DNA from: a phage
DNA length: 64,000 nt
Sequence record: PZ452610.1
Direction: 5' to 3' (one strand)
A program made the translations under genes and the position numbers. Shown piece after piece: positions 11,774-53,700 of this stretch (within the stretch, counting starts at the first letter, position 1; each line of letters begins with the position of its first letter). Below the pieces are notes generated by a model that saw only the letters and a list, made by a program, of their open reading frames with translations, did no database searches and was not told where the DNA came from.

Positions 11774-11892
11774 AAATCACCATTATAAATAATAATATCA
11801 AAATAATTAGCAGAGACTCTGTCTCCGACCCGATGTTTAATTTGAATGGATAGAACCTAGATTCATTATACCATCAAAAAATGTAAAGCATA

Positions 11893-32896: not shown

Positions 32897-33145
32897 TTAC
32901 TTCAGGGTAATAATAAAATGACGTACTGCTTTACGAGCTGCTGAAGCCAGAGGCTTAGCATATTTCAGTTCATCTTTTGCTTCCAGTTCAGCAGCCAGAG
33001 TAGCCTGAGCAGGATTCAGATGTTTGAAATATCGCAGGATTTCCAGTGCTTCGGCTTCAACATCAATTGAAGCGCCGTAGTTTTCGTGACCGTTATTCCA
33101 TGCGTTGCGTTGCAGTTCAAGAGCGTGTTGTAATTGTTTAATCAT
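32897..33145 (-). CDS. rIII: RIII lysis-inhibition accessory protein
   Basis: 82-aa ORF, sequence recognisably T4 RIII (MIKQLQHALELQRNAWNNGHENYG...). Confidence 0.9.
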   Translation of the reverse strand: MIKQLQHALELQRNAWNNGHENYGASIDVEAEALEILRYFKHLNPAQATLAAELEAKDELKYAKPLASAARKAVRHFIITLK

Positions 33146-33261
33146 TTTAAATTCTCAATTCGAGATAATATTTAGTAGCCACGTTCGTCTGAATTTCACC
33201 TTCTTTCGACAGGTCTCTCAGTTGTAGGCTACCGCTTAGAAGAGTGTTCTCTTCATATAGT

Positions 33262-33269
33262 TATTTATA
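33262..33269 (-). promoter_or_regulatory. candidate late promoter (minus strand) upstream of rIII
   Basis: Minus-strand TATAAATA at the 3' end of gene 31, about 115 nt upstream of the rIII ATG. Confidence 0.4.
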
Positions 33270-33602
33270 TCACTTATAAAGACACGGAATAGCTTTATAG
33301 TGGCATGTTACGAATTTCTGTTTAATTTCTTTAGGTTGTTTAAGTCCCAAAGCCACAAATGGATGTGGAACATTTCGAATTTGTCCAACTGGTAGTGGAG
33401 TCAAATCACCGACTTCAACAAAACCTTCAGGAACATCAGGACCTACAGAATGAACTACACATAGTTCAGGAACTTCACCTTGAACACGTTTACCGATCAC
33501 AAGTCCTGATTCGGTAACTTCTTCATCACCTGCTTGAGCGGGTTCAGAAACCAGAATGACATATTCACCAACAGCACGAATTGGGAGTTGTACTTCAGAC
33601 AT
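33270..33602 (-). CDS. 31: co-chaperonin gp31 (GroES analogue)
   Basis: 110-aa ORF, sequence recognisably T4 gp31 ([28 protein letters not shown]...). Confidence 0.93.
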
Positions 33603-33659
33603 CTTATTTCCTTGTTGTTTGACGATAGATTAATAATACCATACTATTCGTAAAGCATA

Positions 33660-33968
33660 TTACATAAGAAGCAAACGTTCTACCGGAGTACCATCAACCG
33701 AAATTACTTTATCAAGGCGGAAAGAACGCCACTGGCCTAACTTGGTATCGAATGCTCGAACTGATTCACGAGGTTCAGAACGAACTTCTGTTGCCGGATT
33801 GTTATTTTCATATTTGACTTCAAGTTCATCACGCGAAGCAAACATAGTGCGTACCTCGCCGTTAGCCTTTTCAAATACAACACAATGAACGCCTACAGAC
33901 AGAATAGTTTTAATACGTTCACGAAGAACCATAGTTTCTTGTTCAGTTAAAATCATATTATTCACCAC
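33660..33968 (-). CDS. hypothetical protein (102 aa; 31.1 position)
   Basis: ORF overlapping the cd start by 11 nt. Confidence 0.5.
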   Translation of the reverse strand: MVNNMILTEQETMVLRERIKTILSVGVHCVVFEKANGEVRTMFASRDELEVKYENNNPATEVRSEPRESVRAFDTKLGQWRSFRLDKVISVDGTPVERLLLM

Positions 33969-34539
33969 AAAAGTTTCGGATTTGTTCCCAATTCAGAGAA
34001 CGAAGATTATTACGAGAGTACTGAATTACTTCAATACCGGCTTGTTTTAGAATGTCTGCCCAATTTTCAGGAGATCTGTCATATAATTCTGCGTATACAA
34101 CCTTTTTAATACCTGACTGTGTAATAGCTTTAGTGCAATCAGGACATGGAGAAAGTGTCGTATACAACGTAGCACCTTCAATAGAATTACCTTTACGAGC
34201 TGCAAACAAAATTGCATTCAGTTCCGCATGGATTTCGTTATTAGCGGACCATGCACTATGAGCAGCCCGATGTTCTTTAGCCAAAACAAAATTATCCACC
34301 CGTCCAAATGCTGTAGTGCCTTCTTTATGCCCAGCAACGATGACCGGGCTTGGTTTATTCTTCAACCAACCGTTTTCGGATGCATGTTCACAACAGTTAA
34401 CACCACCGGCCGGGCTACCGTTATACCCAGTAGAGATAATGCGTCCATCTTTTTCAATGACGGCACCAACTTTCCATGAACAACATTTTGATTCTTGAGA
34501 AATCAAATAAGCAATTTGAAGATATGTGCTAGCTTTCAT
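33958..34539 (-). CDS. cd: dCMP deaminase
   Basis: 193-aa ORF with cytidine/dCMP deaminase zinc motifs (HAELNAI ... PCPDCTKAI); T4 cd length. Confidence 0.92.
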   Translation of the reverse strand: MKASTYLQIAYLISQESKCCSWKVGAVIEKDGRIISTGYNGSPAGGVNCCEHASENGWLKNKPSPVIVAGHKEGTTAFGRVDNFVLAKEHRAAHSAWSANNEIHAELNAILFAARKGNSIEGATLYTTLSPCPDCTKAITQSGIKKVVYAELYDRSPENWADILKQAGIEVIQYSRNNLRSLNWEQIRNFCGE

Positions 34540-35531
34540 TATTGAACCTTATTAATATAAGTTAACAGCTCTTTAGTTTGTTCCCAACTGATGCACGCAT
34601 CGGTAACGGAAACGCCATAGGACATATTATCAGAAATTTTTTGATTTCCTTCATGTAGGAATGATTCTATCATAATTCCTTTGACCAAATCATTAGCTGC
34701 TAAATTTTTACCAATACCAATTTGATTGCTATAATGCCCATCAGCGTTTGCATGGCTACAGTCAACCATTACATAATGATTCAGACCTACTGCCCTTGCT
34801 TTGTTAGAAGCTTCTTGAATATCAGAAGAATGATAGTTCGGGCCGTTGGTCCCGCCACGCAATACGATATGCGTATTCTGATTACCTTCAGCTTCAACAA
34901 TGCCTACAGTACCATCGACGTCCATACCCATATACCGATGAGGCCAGGCGGCACTATACATCGCGTCTGTAGCTACTTTAATAGAACCATTGGTTGCGTT
35001 CTTGAAGCCTACGCACATCGGTAGACCTGAAGCAATTTCACGATGTGTCTGACTTTCAGTCGTACGGGCGCCAATAGCAACCCATGAGAAAATACCAGAA
35101 AGATACTTAATCGTGAATGGGTCTAATACTTCAGTTGCTAATGGAAGTCCCATACGTAGAAGTTTACGACACAATGTTCGTGCAACTATAAGACCGTGGT
35201 TCATATCAAAACTTCCGTCAAGATATGGATCATTTACAAGACCTTTCCAACCTACGGTAGTTCGAGGCTTTTCAAAATAAACGCGCATCACTAACAGAAC
35301 ATTAGGAAGACGAGTTTGAAGTTCAGCCAGACGTTTGCCGTATTCAACAGCAGCAATAGGGTCATGAATTGAACAAGGACCTACAACAATAAGTTTGCGT
35401 GGGTCTTCACCGTTCATAATCGAATTAACTTGTTCGCGATGAGAAGCCACTTGTGATGCGTAAGCTTCCGACAAAGGAATAATCTCAGCCAGTTCTTTTG
35501 GAGAAATAAGTTTTCCGACGACAGGTAACAT
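34539..35531 (-). CDS. 3-deoxy-D-arabino-heptulosonate-7-phosphate (DAHP) synthase, class I-alpha (AroG/F/H-like)
   Basis: 330-aa ORF with the conserved blocks of E. coli AroG-type enzymes (GPCSIHD, EKPRTTVGWKG, IGARTTESQ, VDCSHAN, ESFLHEGNQ, TDACISWE); TAATG overlap with cd; SD AAGGA. Confidence 0.88.
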   Translation of the reverse strand: MLPVVGKLISPKELAEIIPLSEAYASQVASHREQVNSIMNGEDPRKLIVVGPCSIHDPIAAVEYGKRLAELQTRLPNVLLVMRVYFEKPRTTVGWKGLVNDPYLDGSFDMNHGLIVARTLCRKLLRMGLPLATEVLDPFTIKYLSGIFSWVAIGARTTESQTHREIASGLPMCVGFKNATNGSIKVATDAMYSAAWPHRYMGMDVDGTVGIVEAEGNQNTHIVLRGGTNGPNYHSSDIQEASNKARAVGLNHYVMVDCSHANADGHYSNQIGIGKNLAANDLVKGIMIESFLHEGNQKISDNMSYGVSVTDACISWEQTKELLTYINKVQ

Positions 35532-35651
35532 AACAATCCTTAGGAGATATAAACAGATTCTGATTCAACAATACCTTTAACCGGATTAGACAGGCTAAGT
35601 TGGTAGTGCTCAGATTTATGACCATTCTCGATAGTAATGAGATAGCTCTCA

Positions 35652-35888
35652 TTATAGTGTTCCATATACTCGAGTTGCTTCAACAAGACCATCACTGCCT
35701 AATTTAAGATTAGTAATTTGGTCACCATCTTTAGGATTAACGATTATGAGAAAAGAACGTGGAGATTCTTGAATAACTCGTAATGTTGCATCTTGGAAAC
35801 GTTCAGACACTTTATTGATGAGTGCTTGAGCAAATTCTTTTACTTTAATCTGAAATTCGTGTACTGTAATTGGGTTTTCACTTAGCAT
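35652..35888 (-). CDS. hypothetical protein (78 aa)
   Basis: ORF with SD GAGGAA and early promoter at 35917-35946. Confidence 0.45.
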   Translation of the reverse strand: MLSENPITVHEFQIKVKEFAQALINKVSERFQDATLRVIQESPRSFLIIVNPKDGDQITNLKLGSDGLVEATRVYGTL

Positions 35889-35916
35889 TTCTATTTCCTC
35901 ATTTGTTGGTAGAGTT

Positions 35917-35946
35917 ATAGTATCACAACTCCACCATGTTGTAAAC
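35917..35946 (-). promoter_or_regulatory. early promoter for the cd-pseT accessory block
   Basis: GTTTAC, 18 nt, TACTAT on minus strand; same family. Confidence 0.55.
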
Positions 35947-35948
35947 CA

Positions 35949-36224
35949 TTAAATTGCTTTGCATTCAATTTTTTGTGTACCGAAATTGATATCACACTGG
36001 ATAACTAAATCGCCGTCAAGATCAAATACCACTATGACGTGTGCAGACCCAGGGAGAAGAGTAATAGCAATAGAATCTACTTGGTCTGGGAGCAAAGCAT
36101 TGAGTACATGAGTTAGTTGAGCATGAACTCTGAGTTCGGCTGCATTATCAAGCACTTCAAACATATTATTAGCAATAATCTGACTGAAGACTACCTTTAC
36201 AATTTCAGAATAAGTTGGGAACAT
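35949..36224 (-). CDS. hypothetical protein (91 aa)
   Basis: ORF in the cd-pseT accessory block. Confidence 0.45.
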   Translation of the reverse strand: MFPTYSEIVKVVFSQIIANNMFEVLDNAAELRVHAQLTHVLNALLPDQVDSIAITLLPGSAHVIVVFDLDGDLVIQCDINFGTQKIECKAI

Positions 36225-36231
36225 AATTACC

Positions 36232-36456
36232 TCAGTGTACAGTATTTACTTTAACTCGAACAACAAATCGCTCGGTCGGTTCACCTACAGGAACAAACTC
36301 TACATGATATTCACCTTTGTAACGAGTATTCAGATCATTACGAATTCCTGCGAGTTTGTTGATTAATGTAGGACTCATATTAAGTCCCACTAGTTTACGA
36401 AGCATTTTGTATGCTTCATCTTCGATTTCATGATGTTTATCGTACATAGTTTTCAT
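36232..36456 (-). CDS. hypothetical protein (74 aa)
   Basis: ORF in the cd-pseT accessory block. Confidence 0.45.
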   Translation of the reverse strand: MKTMYDKHHEIEDEAYKMLRKLVGLNMSPTLINKLAGIRNDLNTRYKGEYHVEFVPVGEPTERFVVRVKVNTVH

Positions 36457-36627
36457 TTAACCATTCAATTGCCTGGTCGACGTTATCAAATATACCGCCG
36501 TCCAAACGTTCTTCATGCTCATAGTCCAGCACATCAATACCGAACTGTCCATTTACTAAAGGCCAGGCTACAAACAAATATTCTTTATGCTGTTCGATGG
36601 CCTCAATCACTTCATATAATCGTTTCA

Positions 36628-36628
<1 letters not shown>
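36437..36628 (-). CDS. hypothetical protein (63 aa)
   Basis: ORF with TAATG overlap to pseT. Confidence 0.45.
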
Positions 36629-37692
<1,064 letters not shown>

Positions 37693-37715
<23 letters not shown>

Positions 37716-38016
37716 TATTTATTCCTAAGAAAGTTTCAAGAATACGAATGTTATGCTCGCGCCGGTCTTTATTAATTTCAGCAACGTTTTTATTAATTGA
37801 CGTACTTCTAACGTTTGAAGAAATAAATTTAATCATATGACTTTTGAGTTGTTGCAAATCCAACCCTTTTTCTTTAGCAGCTTTACGAAGAGCTTTACCT
37901 GCTTCATCTAGGGCCTTTGCCGCATCTTTGTCATAATTGACAAGTGACGACGTTCCACGACAGATATCAATATACTCATCAGACCGTTTGATGTAATTCT
38001 CTAGTAATGTTTTCAT
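37693..38016 (-). CDS. hypothetical protein (107 aa)
   Basis: ORF with early promoter at 38045-38074. Confidence 0.45.
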
Positions 38017-50713: not shown

Positions 50714-53700
50714 ATGGCCGACATCAAACGTAAGTTCAGAGCCGAAGACGGTCTGGACGCCGGTGGCGACAAGATTGTTAACGTAGCATTAGCCGACCGT
50801 ACAGTAGGTACTGATGGCGTAAACGTTGACTTCCTGGTACAAGAAAACACCGTTCAAGTATATGATTCTACGCGTGGATATAACAAAGGATTTGTTGTTC
50901 TTTATGACAACCGTTTATATCAAGCAATAAATGATATCGTGTCTCCTTCCGGGGCATTTAACCTTTTACAATGGCGTGCAGTTCGTACCGATGCACAATG
51001 GATAACTGTCGCTTCTGGGACTTATCAACTTTCTTCAGGTGAATCTATTTCGGTTAACACTGGTGCCGGCAATGATATGGTTTTCACGTTGCCAAATACG
51101 CCGGTTGATGGTGATACTGTTGTTTTGGCTGATATTGGTGGAAGAACCGGGACAGTTAAAGTACAGATTAACGCGTCTGTGCAGAGTATTTTAAACTTTA
51201 GAGGTGAACAAGTTCGTACAGTTTTAATGACGCGCCCACGTTCACAACTATTGTTTGTGTTTAGTAATCGTTTGTGGCAGATGTATATTACCGATTATGG
51301 TAAAGAATCAATCACTGTTACACCTGCGACACCATATCAAGCACAAGCAAATGATTTTATCGTTCGTCGTTTTACTAGTGCAGCACCAATCAACATTACA
51401 CTTCCACGTAATGCTAACAATGGTGATATAATCAGCCTAGTCGATTTAGATAAATTAAACCCACTGTATCATACAATTGTTAAAACATTTGATGATACAA
51501 CGTCTATTGGTGAAGTCGGGACTCATATTGCCGAAGGCAGAAATGACTCTGACGCGTTTTTTGTTTTTGATGCTGCAAATAGTTTATGGCGTATACGGGA
51601 AGGCGACCAGAAATCACGTCTTCGTATTATCCGTGCGGATTCAAATATTCGTCCAAATGAAGAAGTTCTTATTTTTGGCACAAATAACGCTACAACCGGA
51701 ACTATTAATCTTACGCTGCCTACCAGAATTTTGAGTGGTGACACTGTTAAAATTTCAATGAACTACATGCGTAAAGGCCAAACAGTAAAAATTAAAGCTG
51801 CCGAAGGTGATACAATTGCTTCTTCTGTTGCATTGCTTCAGTTCCCTAAACGTTCTGAATATCCACCTGATGCTCAATGGGTCTCTGTTACTGAACTAGA
51901 ATTCAATGGCACTACTTCATATGTTCCTGTATTAGAATTAGCGTATATCGAAGACACTGATTCTGACACTCACTATTGGGTTGTGCAACAGAATGTCCCT
52001 ACGGTAGAACGTGTTGATGCTGGAAATGATGCTACACGAGCTCGTTTAGGTGTTATTGCTCTTGCTACTCAAGCGCAAGCAAATGTTGATTTAGAGAATA
52101 CTCCAGCTAAAGAAGTGGCTATTACTCCGGAAACATTGGCAAATCGTACAGCAACTGAAGCTCGACGTGGTATCGCTAAAATTGCTACAACAGCACAAGT
52201 TAACCAGAATTCCACAGCATCATTTGTGGACGATACTATTGTTACGCCTAAAAAACTAAATGAGCGTACAGCAACTGAAACTCGTCGCGGTCTTGCTGAA
52301 ATTGCTACTCAGACTGAAACCGATGCTGGTCTTGATGACACAACGATTATTACACCTAAGAAATTGCAGGCACGTCAGGGTTCTGAAACACTATCAGGTA
52401 TAGTTAAATATGTATCAACTACTTCTGCTACTCCTGCTGAAACTCGTGGTGCTGCAGGCACTAACGTTTATAATAAAACCGTAAATAATTTAACTATTTC
52501 TCCTAAAGCCCTTGACCAATATAAAGCAACTTATGCTCAACAAGGTGCAGTAATTTTAGCTGTTGATAGTGAAGTAATTGCTGGTCAATCACAAGCAGGT
52601 TATTCTCACGCTGTAGTAACTCCTGAAACACTACATAAGAAAACTTCTACTGATGGACGTATTGGTTTAATTGAAATTGCTACGCAAGCAGAAACTAATG
52701 CTGGGACTGATTATACACGTGCAGTAACGCCTAAGACGTTAAATGATAGGAAAGCTACGGAAGGATTATCCGGCATAGCCGAACTTGCTACGCAAGTTGA
52801 ATTTGATACTGGAACTGACGATACTCGTATCTCAACTCCACTGAAAATTAAAACTCATTTTGATTCTTCTGACCGTACCAGTGTTAATTCTGATTCCGGA
52901 CTTATTGAAGAAGGAACCTTGTGGAACCATTATACTCTTGATATTTCTAAAGCAAATGAAACACAACGTGGTACACTTCGCGTAGCGACTCAGGCAGAAT
53001 CTAATGCAGGAACTTTAGATGATGTTCTTATTACTCCTAAAAAGCTTTTAGGGACTAAGTCCACTGAAACGTCTGAAGGCGTAATTAAGGTTGCTACTCG
53101 GGCTGAAACTGTAACAGGAACTTCTGCTAATACTGCTGTATCTCCTAAGAATTTAAAATGGATTGTCCAGTCTGAACCAACATGGGCTGCTACTACGGCG
53201 ATTCGTGGATTCGTTAAAACTTCATCTGGTTCTATTACATTCGTTGGTAATGATACAGTTGGTTCAACGCAACCTTTAGAATCATATGAAAAAAATAGCT
53301 ATGCTATATCTCCATATGAATTAAACCGTGTACTTGCTAACTATTTGCCGTTGAAAGCTAAAGCCATAGATAGTAATTTATTAGATGGTCTAGATTCATC
53401 TCAGTTCATTCGTAGGGACATTGCACAGACGGTTAATGGTTCACTAACCTTAACCCAACAAACGAATCTGAGTGCCCCTCTTGTATCATCTAGTACTGCT
53501 ACGTTTGGTGGTTCAGTTTCGGCAAATAGTACATTAACTATTTCTAACTCTGGAACAGCTACTCGACTGATTTTTGAAAAAGGACCTCAGACCGGAACAA
53601 ATCCTGCTCAAACTATGACTATCAGAGTTTGGGGAAATGAATTTGGTGGTGGTTCAGATACAACACGTTCTACTGTATTTGAAGTTGGCGATGAAACATC

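Follow-up and report, generated by a model that had tools for sequence, protein, structure and literature searches.

Why should a lytic T4-like phage carry a gene for an enzyme that acts at the entry step of the shikimate pathway? This question is raised by a stretch of phage DNA of 64,000 nucleotides (nt) from sequence record PZ452610.1. We call the whole stretch the window, and all positions are counted from its first letter. Between the phage genes pseT and cd, the window holds a gene for a class I-alpha 3-deoxy-7-phosphoheptulonate (DAHP) synthase. A first-pass annotation, which was made from the letters of the sequence, had described it as an intact open reading frame (ORF) of 330 amino acids with six motif blocks of this enzyme family. 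We found all six in the translation: GPCSIHD at residues 51-57, EKPRTTVGWKG at 87-97, IGARTTESQ at 153-161, VDCSHAN at 256-262, ESFLHEGNQ at 289-297, and TDACISWE at 310-317. The explanation that we favour, with moderate confidence, is that the gene provides a catalytically competent, early-made and feedback-insensitive AroF-like DAHP synthase, which would feed the shikimate pathway of the host.

The family of the protein was determined from profiles, from solved relatives and from a structural model. The protein matched the Pfam model DAHP_synth_1 (PF00793) with 252 bits (cutoff 25.5; E=5e-75) and the NCBIfam aroFGH equivalog model TIGR00034 with 428 bits (cutoff 173), and the latter match covered residues 6-327. 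The best solved relatives were E. coli AroF (PDB 6agm, E=5e-105), the Neisseria enzyme (DAH7PS, another name of DAHP synthase) and E. coli AroG. An AlphaFold2 model built from 36 homologs had a pLDDT of 92.8 and a pTM of 0.92, and a Foldseek comparison with the class I-alpha crystal structures 4HSO, 1GG1 and 1KFL (Neisseria and E. coli) gave a TM score of 0.96 and a root-mean-square deviation of 1.4 A. In this model, helices at residues 11-17 and 22-39 stand ahead of the (beta/alpha)8 barrel, and two extra strands at 198-203 and 209-214 form the beta6a/beta6b hairpin. The N-terminal helices and the hairpin set the regulated I-alpha enzymes apart from 3-deoxy-D-manno-octulosonate 8-phosphate (KDO8P) synthase, which is a barrel of about 280 amino acids with neither an N-terminal extension nor a beta6a/beta6b hairpin. 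We considered a KDO8P synthase and rejected it: the NCBIfam matches included no model of that enzyme, every one of the best matches in structure and sequence was a DAH7PS, and the protein carries the I-alpha decorations. The protein is a class I-alpha DAHP synthase of the AroF/AroG/AroH family. The profiles, the AroF and AroG matches and the model fold agree on this point with the first-pass annotation; neither an assignment to KDO8P synthase or another family in the profile search nor a loss of catalytic residues on alignment was seen.

The label "AroG-type" given to the gene in that annotation has to be changed. The score against the NCBIfam AroG equivalog NF006723 was 363, which is below its cutoff of 568, and the score against the AroH model NF009396 was 386 (cutoff 463). 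The score against the AroF-like model NF009395, which describes a subfamily rather than an equivalog, was 455 and exceeded the cutoff of 343. When the protein was aligned with the three E. coli enzymes, its full-length identity was 51% with AroF, 47% with AroG, and 44% with AroH. In addition, the residue at the position of Tyr/Phe selectivity (AroG S211) is Gly, which is the Tyr-type residue found in AroF. By these scores and identities the phage protein seems nearest to the AroF (Tyr-type) lineage, not to AroG.

The active site is intact. All four metal ligands (C53, H260, E289, and D311), which the first-pass annotation had expected an alignment to confirm, are present. The residues for phosphoenolpyruvate (PEP) and erythrose-4-phosphate (E4P) are present as well: R83, K88, R156, K177, and R225 and the segment K88-P89-R90-T91 correspond to R92, K97, R165, K186, R234, and KPR(S/T) of AroG. 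The metal ligands and the residues R92, K97, R99, R165, K186, and R234 (AroG numbering) were invariant in 123 of 123 aligned sequences, and the K-P-R-T motif was invariant in the 24 phage and 98 bacterial sequences. We infer that the phage enzyme is catalytically competent, that is, that with a metal cofactor it would form DAHP from PEP and E4P.

The features that distinguish the phage enzymes from the bacterial ones lie elsewhere in the protein. We scanned the 330 aligned positions for columns in which one residue is present in at least 90% of the 24 phage clusters and another residue in at least 90% of the 98 bacterial relatives. Only six columns passed this unbiased scan. In AroG numbering, the changes from the bacterial to the phage residue are P150 to I, Q151 to K, D155 to G, S180 to P, F209 to Y, and T223 to A. 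At five of the six positions the phage residue was seen in no bacterial sequence, and all six lie outside the active site. Five of them belong to the 12 effector or feedback-resistance positions documented in two reviews (PMC9529685, PMC11843938), an agreement with a hypergeometric P of 1.5e-7. The sixth, T223, is two residues past V221, with which it shares a strand of the regulatory hairpin, and the V221A substitution makes the enzyme resistant.

The roles of these positions are known from the E. coli enzymes. Q151/Q152 and S180/S181 use their side chains to bind the inhibitor by its main chain, and D155 stabilises the inhibitor site; AroG P150L is fully resistant to feedback, and S180F and F209A/S are resistant (PMC9529685). 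The AroF mutant Gln152Ile is insensitive to Tyr (PMC11843938). In the phages, Q151 and S180, which are both polar anchors of the inhibitor main chain, are replaced in 24 of 24 clusters; this was the case in none of the 98 bacterial sequences. At the position of AroG Ser180, all 24 phage clusters have Pro and 97 of the 98 bacterial sequences have Ser. The pocket residues K142, P171, I141, and Y200 of the phage enzyme are found in 23-24 of the 24 clusters and in none of the bacterial relatives. The enzyme is probably insensitive to Phe, Tyr, and Trp, because five of the six changes that define the phage clade fall on documented effector or resistance positions. That is, the effector site for aromatic amino acids seems to have been dismantled.

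We regard this clade-wide substitution of the pocket as a stronger argument for deregulation than the truncation of the N-terminus, which the first-pass annotation had put at 15-20 residues relative to AroG. In the alignment, L2 of the phage protein pairs with AroG I10 and AroF I11, which means that the phage N-terminus is 8 residues shorter than that of AroG and 9 residues shorter than that of AroF. The rest of the 20-residue difference in length is accounted for by two internal deletions, of 5 and 3 amino acids, close to the last third of the protein, and by a C-terminus that ends earlier. The number of residues before the position of AroG P19 is 8-12 in all 24 phage clusters as compared to 16-53 in the bacteria. 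The absent segment comprises residues 2-9 of AroG or 2-10 of AroF and includes AroG D6/D7 and AroF N8. In the feedback-regulated I-alpha isoenzymes, it is the N-terminal segment (AroG Asp6/Asp7; AroF Asn8) that shuts the effector site of the adjoining subunit. The AroF mutant Asn8Lys has been reported to be insensitive to Tyr (PMC11843938). We also considered that a misplaced start codon had produced the short N-terminus. In four genera, stop codons in the same frame are found 4-12 codons upstream of the start. The truncation is therefore genuine, and a longer protein is excluded.

As for the time of expression, an early promoter, Pe133295, is marked in the T4 record in the gap between cd.3 and cd.2, and in the window the corresponding intergenic sequence is closely similar. 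The promoter is kept almost base for base (GTTTAC at -35 ... TGTGATACTAT; TG-n-TACTAT at -10; T4 stretch L009:6263-6334). It is located 386 nt upstream of the DAHP synthase gene. The ortholog of cd.2 starts 29 nt 3' of the promoter-like site (35945..35917), and the order of genes after the promoter is the cd.2 ortholog, a small annotated ORF, the DAHP synthase gene, and cd. A terminator scan found no terminator-like site on the minus strand between the Pe133295 ortholog and the DAHP synthase and cd genes. The promoter-like site is thus the likely start of a transcript that runs from cd.2 through the DAHP synthase gene to cd, and homology to the T4 promoter points to early or middle expression of the DAHP synthase. 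Of the sites found in the sigma-70 and terminator scans, we kept only this ortholog of the T4 promoter; generic terminator counts in the window were not above the shuffled expectation.

Further upstream of the DAHP synthase gene, inside pseT, there is a middle-promoter motif resembling the MotA box (36935..36911, minus strand). Motifs of this type (TGCTTNA-N11-13-TANNNT) occurred 13 times in the window, a count that none of the shuffles attained; the expected number was 4.0 +/- 2.1. All but one of them are on the minus strand (for example 33633-33657, 36911-36935, 11865-11890, and 52929-52954), and one is located just upstream of gene 31.

The coordinates of the gene, of its functional codons and of its neighbours are listed in Table 1.

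Table 1. Positions in the window of the DAHP synthase gene, of its active-site and effector-site codons, and of adjacent features.
Feature	Position	Strand	Description	Basis
Class I-alpha DAHP synthase coding sequence	34539..35531	minus	ATG start, TAA stop, 330 amino acids	ORF and profiles
Cys53 codon	35373..35375	minus	Metal ligand, AroG Cys61	Alignment
His260 codon	34752-34754	minus	Metal ligand, AroG H268	Alignment
Glu289 codon	34665-34667	minus	Metal ligand, AroG E302	Alignment
Asp311 codon	34599-34601	minus	Metal ligand, AroG D326	Alignment
Arg83-Arg90 codons	35262..35285	minus	AroG R92, K97, P98, R99; PEP-binding residues and KPRT E4P-phosphate motif	
Codons 141-146 (I-K-Y-L-S-G)	35094..35111	minus	Effector pocket; AroG P150 to I, Q151 to K, D155 to G	
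Pro171 codon	35019..35021	minus	Effector-site position; AroG Ser180, AroF Ser181	
Tyr200-Ala214 codons	34890..34934	minus	beta6a/beta6b regulatory hairpin; AroG F209 to Y, T223 to A, Gly kept at S211	
Shine-Dalgarno sequence AAGGA	35537..35541	minus	5 nt 5' of the DAHP synthase ATG	Read from sequence
Sigma-70 early-promoter-like site	35917..35945	minus	TTTACA-N17-TACTAT, extended TG	Promoter scan and orthology to T4 Pe133295
cd (dCMP deaminase)	33958..34539	minus	ATG overlaps the DAHP synthase stop (TAATG)	Pfam dCMP_cyt_deam_1
cd.2 ortholog (DUF7320)	35652..35888	minus	78 amino acids; between early promoter and DAHP synthase	Pfam PF24005; best T4 match cd.2, score 241
ORF with GTG start	35540-35695	minus	51 amino acids; fills the gap between cd.2 ortholog and DAHP synthase	
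31.1 ortholog	33660-33968	minus	102 amino acids	Pfam WYL_2 (Sm-like SH3 beta-barrel)

The stop/start overlap with the dCMP deaminase gene is as it had been described: the minus strand reads CAA-TAA-TG-AAA, and base 34539 is common to both genes. An AAGG(A) sequence also precedes the DAHP synthase orthologs of Kanagawavirus PEi20 and Klebsiella phage kv_tblp5. The 51-residue ORF overlaps the end of the cd.2 ortholog by about 40 nt; it is the hypothetical protein FDG79_gp027 in RefSeq and is without a counterpart among cd.1-cd.5 of T4. The WYL_2 match of the 31.1 ortholog agrees with the label "SH3 beta-barrel fold-containing protein" in the T4 record.

The gene itself is already catalogued. Positions 33000-38000 of the window are 100% identical to Escherichia coli O157 typing phages 3, 6, and 13 (Mosigvirus, Tevenvirinae, Straboviridae). 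In RefSeq record NC_041863, the ORF is annotated as aroF (FDG79_gp028, "phospho-2-dehydro-3-deoxyheptonate aldolase", YP_009592745.1) with 100% identity. The protein also belongs to phrog_5045, which bears the same enzyme name and is placed in the category "moron, auxiliary metabolic gene and host takeover" (606 bits, E=3e-182; residues 1-330 on profile positions 8-337 of 341). The presence of the gene is therefore known from RefSeq and PHROG 5045, a point which the first-pass annotation could not settle from the letters that it saw.

A tblastn search found a full-length copy in a single piece in 213 of 50,697 phage records. The copies in 140 of these records, from Mosigvirus phages of E. coli and Shigella, are at least 95% identical to that of the window; 47 others, from T4-like phages of Klebsiella, Enterobacter, Edwardsiella, Serratia, and Erwinia, are 60-80% identical, and those of Proteus and Providencia phages are about 58% identical. 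The AroF-like lineage of the phage enzyme is confined to T4-like (Straboviridae) phages. Two side observations concern other records. Shigella phage JK45 (MK962757), which is classed as Tequatrovirus, has a DAHP synthase of the Mosigvirus type (98.5% identical) adjoining cd; its taxonomy label could be an error, or its genome could be a mosaic. Two contigs named "Acinetobacter phage MD-2021a" (CAKLQH020000056.1 and CAKLQH020000043.1, 13 and 24 kb) carry DAHP synthases that are annotated as aroF_1 and aroF_2 and are 45-48% identical. These look like ordinary bacterial-type enzymes, and the contigs may be bacterial DNA binned with phage.

The first-pass annotation had taken the gene for a resident member of the early block, coupled to cd and AT-rich in its codons like its neighbours, rather than a recent pickup. 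The GC content at third codon positions (GC3), the promoter in the T4 record and the synteny all agree with this. The GC3 is 0.296 for the DAHP synthase gene, 0.273 for cd, and 0.343 for pseT, as compared to 0.50-0.57 for E. coli aroG, aroF, and aroH. A composition scan of the window showed no island at the gene. The same slot between pseT and cd, mostly directly 5' of cd, is occupied by the gene in Kanagawavirus PEi20, in Klebsiella phage kv_tblp5, in Bragavirus PM2, and in a T4-like contig from a metagenome, the protein of which has only 57% identity. Across lineages, the identity to the window was 76/66/58% for the DAHP synthase, 82/80/65% for cd, 58/67/45% for pseT, and 78/69/44% for gp31. 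On these figures, the divergence of the DAHP synthase tracks that of the flanking genes.

In a neighbour-joining tree of the 24 phage clusters and the 98 bacterial relatives, all 100 bootstraps recovered the phage proteins as one clade. Even the nearest proteins from bacteria, which belong to several phyla, reach only 50-55% identity. A recent capture of the gene from the E. coli host was considered and rejected on four grounds: the 51% identity to AroF, the 50-55% identity of the best bacterial proteins over many phyla, the phage-like GC3, and the 100/100 support of the clade. The long-range ratio of nonsynonymous to synonymous substitution rates (dN/dS) was 0.16-0.20. Close pairs of Mosigvirus are uninformative in this respect, having fewer than 10 substitutions per pair and having been chosen as the lowest-identity records, which biases the ratio upward. 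A pseudogene or inactive relic was likewise rejected, the gene being intact in all 213 phage records at this dN/dS and the metal Cys and KPRT being kept. Judged by tree, synteny and composition, the DAHP synthase gene is an old, vertically inherited accessory gene of T4-like phages, and it is under purifying selection.

The gene is not present in every T4-like phage. As the first-pass annotation had stated, T4 has only small ORFs in this place; its record shows cd.1-cd.5, and the slot is held by cd.1, an unrelated ORF of 112 amino acids. Homology of cd.1 to the DAHP synthase was looked for, and none was found (local score 27). RB69, the type member of Mosigvirus, is also without the gene (NC_004928, 133742-134502), and there cd.2 abuts cd. 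The cd product of RB69 has 169 amino acids and that of the window has 193. Since the gene is absent from T4 and RB69, it is dispensable, and its presence is polymorphic even within one genus.

We propose the following mechanism from these observations. The DAHP synthase gene would be transcribed early from the conserved T4-type promoter in one unit with cd.2 and cd, and its translation is coupled to that of the dCMP deaminase. The enzyme, in which the N-terminal cap is missing and both main-chain anchors of the inhibitor are replaced, would not respond to Phe, Tyr, or Trp. DAHP would keep entering the host shikimate pathway after the shut-off of host gene expression, whatever the pools of aromatic amino acids, and from AroB onward the host enzymes would turn the phage-made DAHP into chorismate and the compounds derived from it. 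The 50 kb inspected, out of a record of 169 kb, showed no further shikimate or chorismate gene, so the DAHP must be used by host enzymes or accumulate. The uses that the first-pass annotation had suggested, namely boosting chorismate-derived precursors or feeding a modification pathway, are speculation.

Several points weigh against this explanation. An unregulated DAHP synthase helps only if the downstream enzymes of the host are not limiting. RB69 and T4 do well without the gene, so any benefit to the phage would be conditional. The counts of sigma-70-like sites were not above the shuffled expectation, and the promoter call rests on homology to T4 and on the match to the consensus. A search of open-access papers and bioRxiv found no paper on the phage enzyme, nor any functional work on phages that act at the entry step of the shikimate pathway. 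The natural changes (Q to K, S to P, P to I, and F to Y) differ from those made in the laboratory (Q to I/A, S to F, P to L, and F to A/S). Moreover, the replaced pocket residues are strictly conserved in the phage clade, and after a simple loss of the site they would more likely drift. This strict conservation leaves room for a site that has been retuned rather than lost.

One of the other explanations is that the enzyme is an ordinary Tyr-sensitive, AroF-like DAHP synthase, which would simply add enzyme copies when host synthesis stops. Its closest characterised relative is indeed the Tyr-sensitive AroF, and the phage protein retains the beta6a/beta6b hairpin and the residues D146, AroF P148, L179, G211, and V221; the changes F209 to Y and L175 to I are conservative. 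We nevertheless consider it unlikely that sensitivity to Tyr has been kept. The replacement of Q151 and S180 throughout the phage clusters, and in no bacterial sequence, is accompanied by the replacement of P150 and by the missing N-terminal cap, and single changes at effector positions abolish inhibition in the E. coli enzymes (PMC9529685, PMC11843938).

A second explanation accepts the loss of the old effectors and assumes that the site has been retuned. That is, the pocket of Lys, Pro, Tyr, Gly, Ala, and Ile would receive another ligand or offer a protein of the phage or the host a surface to dock on, and entry into the shikimate pathway would come under a new control. In accord with this, the six replacement residues (I/K/G/P/Y/A) are conserved in 23-24 of the 24 phage clusters though the proteins are only 55-60% identical overall, the remaining pocket residues D146, P147, T149, L179, M181, and G211 are invariant in the clade, and the gene always adjoins, and is translationally coupled with, that of dCMP deaminase, an allosterically regulated enzyme. 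However, conservation of at least 95% is seen at 41% of all positions within the phage clade, so that six conserved residues are unremarkable by themselves, and the pocket residues, being part of the tight-dimer interface, may owe their conservation to structure. A candidate ligand is also lacking. On this evidence a retuned site seems rather improbable. Still less probable is its fuller form, in which the pocket would have been rebuilt for a nucleotide, a phage metabolite or a protein partner and the phage would control shikimate entry in coordination with the coupled dCMP deaminase.

A phage outside the T4 group also bears on the retuned site. Aeromonas phage HJ05 (OQ594355), which has a genome of 79 kb and is not T4-like, carries a DAHP synthase of 387 amino acids (L008:3399-4562) that is annotated as a "hypothetical protein". 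Its identity to the protein of the window is about 38%; it stands in an unrelated genomic context, has a long N-terminus and keeps the KPRT catalytic motif. Its effector positions are also changed (P150A, Q151H, D155P, S180P, F209V, S211A, and V221S in AroG numbering). The different residues that it carries at the replaced pocket positions (H, P, A, P, V) fit a loss of the site better than a shared new specificity. The HJ05 enzyme was independently acquired and is a parallel case of an altered effector site. Its changes may represent a convergent loss of feedback control, or they may have been inherited from a bacterial paralogue already free of such control.

A third explanation concerns the payoff of the enzyme more than its mechanism. 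The benefit would come from a drain of PEP and/or E4P that redirects the central carbon flux of the host, or from a minor branch of chorismate metabolism such as folate and p-aminobenzoate, quinones, or enterobactin, and not from the aromatic amino acids. The gene order of the inspected 50 kb (frd, td, nrdA, nrdB ... pseT ... DAHP synthase, cd), which is otherwise the standard nucleotide-precursor region of T4, may be taken in its favour, as may the lack of another shikimate gene there. We hold this payoff to be improbable as well. The argument is one of position, and early gene order in T4-like phages is an unreliable guide to function; furthermore, the check for shikimate genes covered 50 kb of the 169-kb record. 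Finally, it is very improbable indeed that the protein is not a DAHP synthase in function but a KDO8P synthase, another aldolase or an inactive relic: although PF00793 also covers KDO8P synthases, the TIGR00034 score is far above its cutoff, the identity to AroF and AroG is 47-51% over the full length, the metal Cys, KPRT, I-alpha-specific N-terminal helices and beta6a/b hairpin are kept, and the gene is intact in 213 of 213 records under a dN/dS of 0.16-0.20.

We therefore return to the feedback-insensitive, AroF-like DAHP synthase as the explanation that we prefer. What the present analysis adds to the known annotation is the hypothesis that the only changes in DAHP synthase that define the phage lineage fall on the feedback site. 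If this is true, the phage enzyme would represent in nature what metabolic engineers have built as feedback-resistant alleles, and a lytic coliphage would override the control of the shikimate pathway by its host. Such enzymes could be useful parts for the production of aromatic compounds. In addition, the conditional presence of the gene, which JS98-like Mosigvirus phages have and RB69 and T4 do not, may offer a natural experiment on when the supply of aromatic compounds or chorismate limits the yield of phage.

The phage enzyme can be compared with several known systems. It is the same as the aldolase of phrog_5045 and RefSeq in JS98-like Mosigvirus, Kanagawavirus, Karamvirus-type Enterobacter phages, Klebsiella T4-like phages, and Bragavirus, being a full-length member encoded in the same slot. 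Among the E. coli enzymes, it resembles the Tyr-sensitive AroF (PDB 6AGM/6AGL) in its 51% identity, in the class I-alpha fold, in identical metal, PEP and E4P residues, in Pro at AroF-148, and in Gly at the position of AroG S211. It differs from AroF in the absence of residues 2-10 including Asn8, in the changes Gln152 to Lys, Ser181 to Pro, Pro151 to Ile, and Asp156 to Gly, in Phe to Tyr and Thr to Ala at the equivalents of AroG F209 and T223, in the two internal deletions of 5 and 3 amino acids and the shorter C-terminus, and in a GC3 of 0.30 as compared to 0.50. With the Phe-sensitive AroG (PDB 1KFL/1GG1) it shares 47% identity and a TM score of 0.96. Like the feedback-resistant mutants of AroG (P150L, S180F, Q151 variants, and F209A/S), the phage clade is changed, in this case naturally, at the same positions. 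Unlike these mutants, it has different replacement residues, several changes together and an N-terminal truncation, and its score against the AroG equivalog is below the cutoff (363 against 568). Lastly, like the classical auxiliary metabolic genes of phages, such as those for carbon metabolism in cyanophages, the gene encodes a host-derived enzyme in a lytic phage, with a fully ameliorated composition and phage expression signals. Unlike them, the phage DAHP synthase acts at the entry step of the shikimate pathway.

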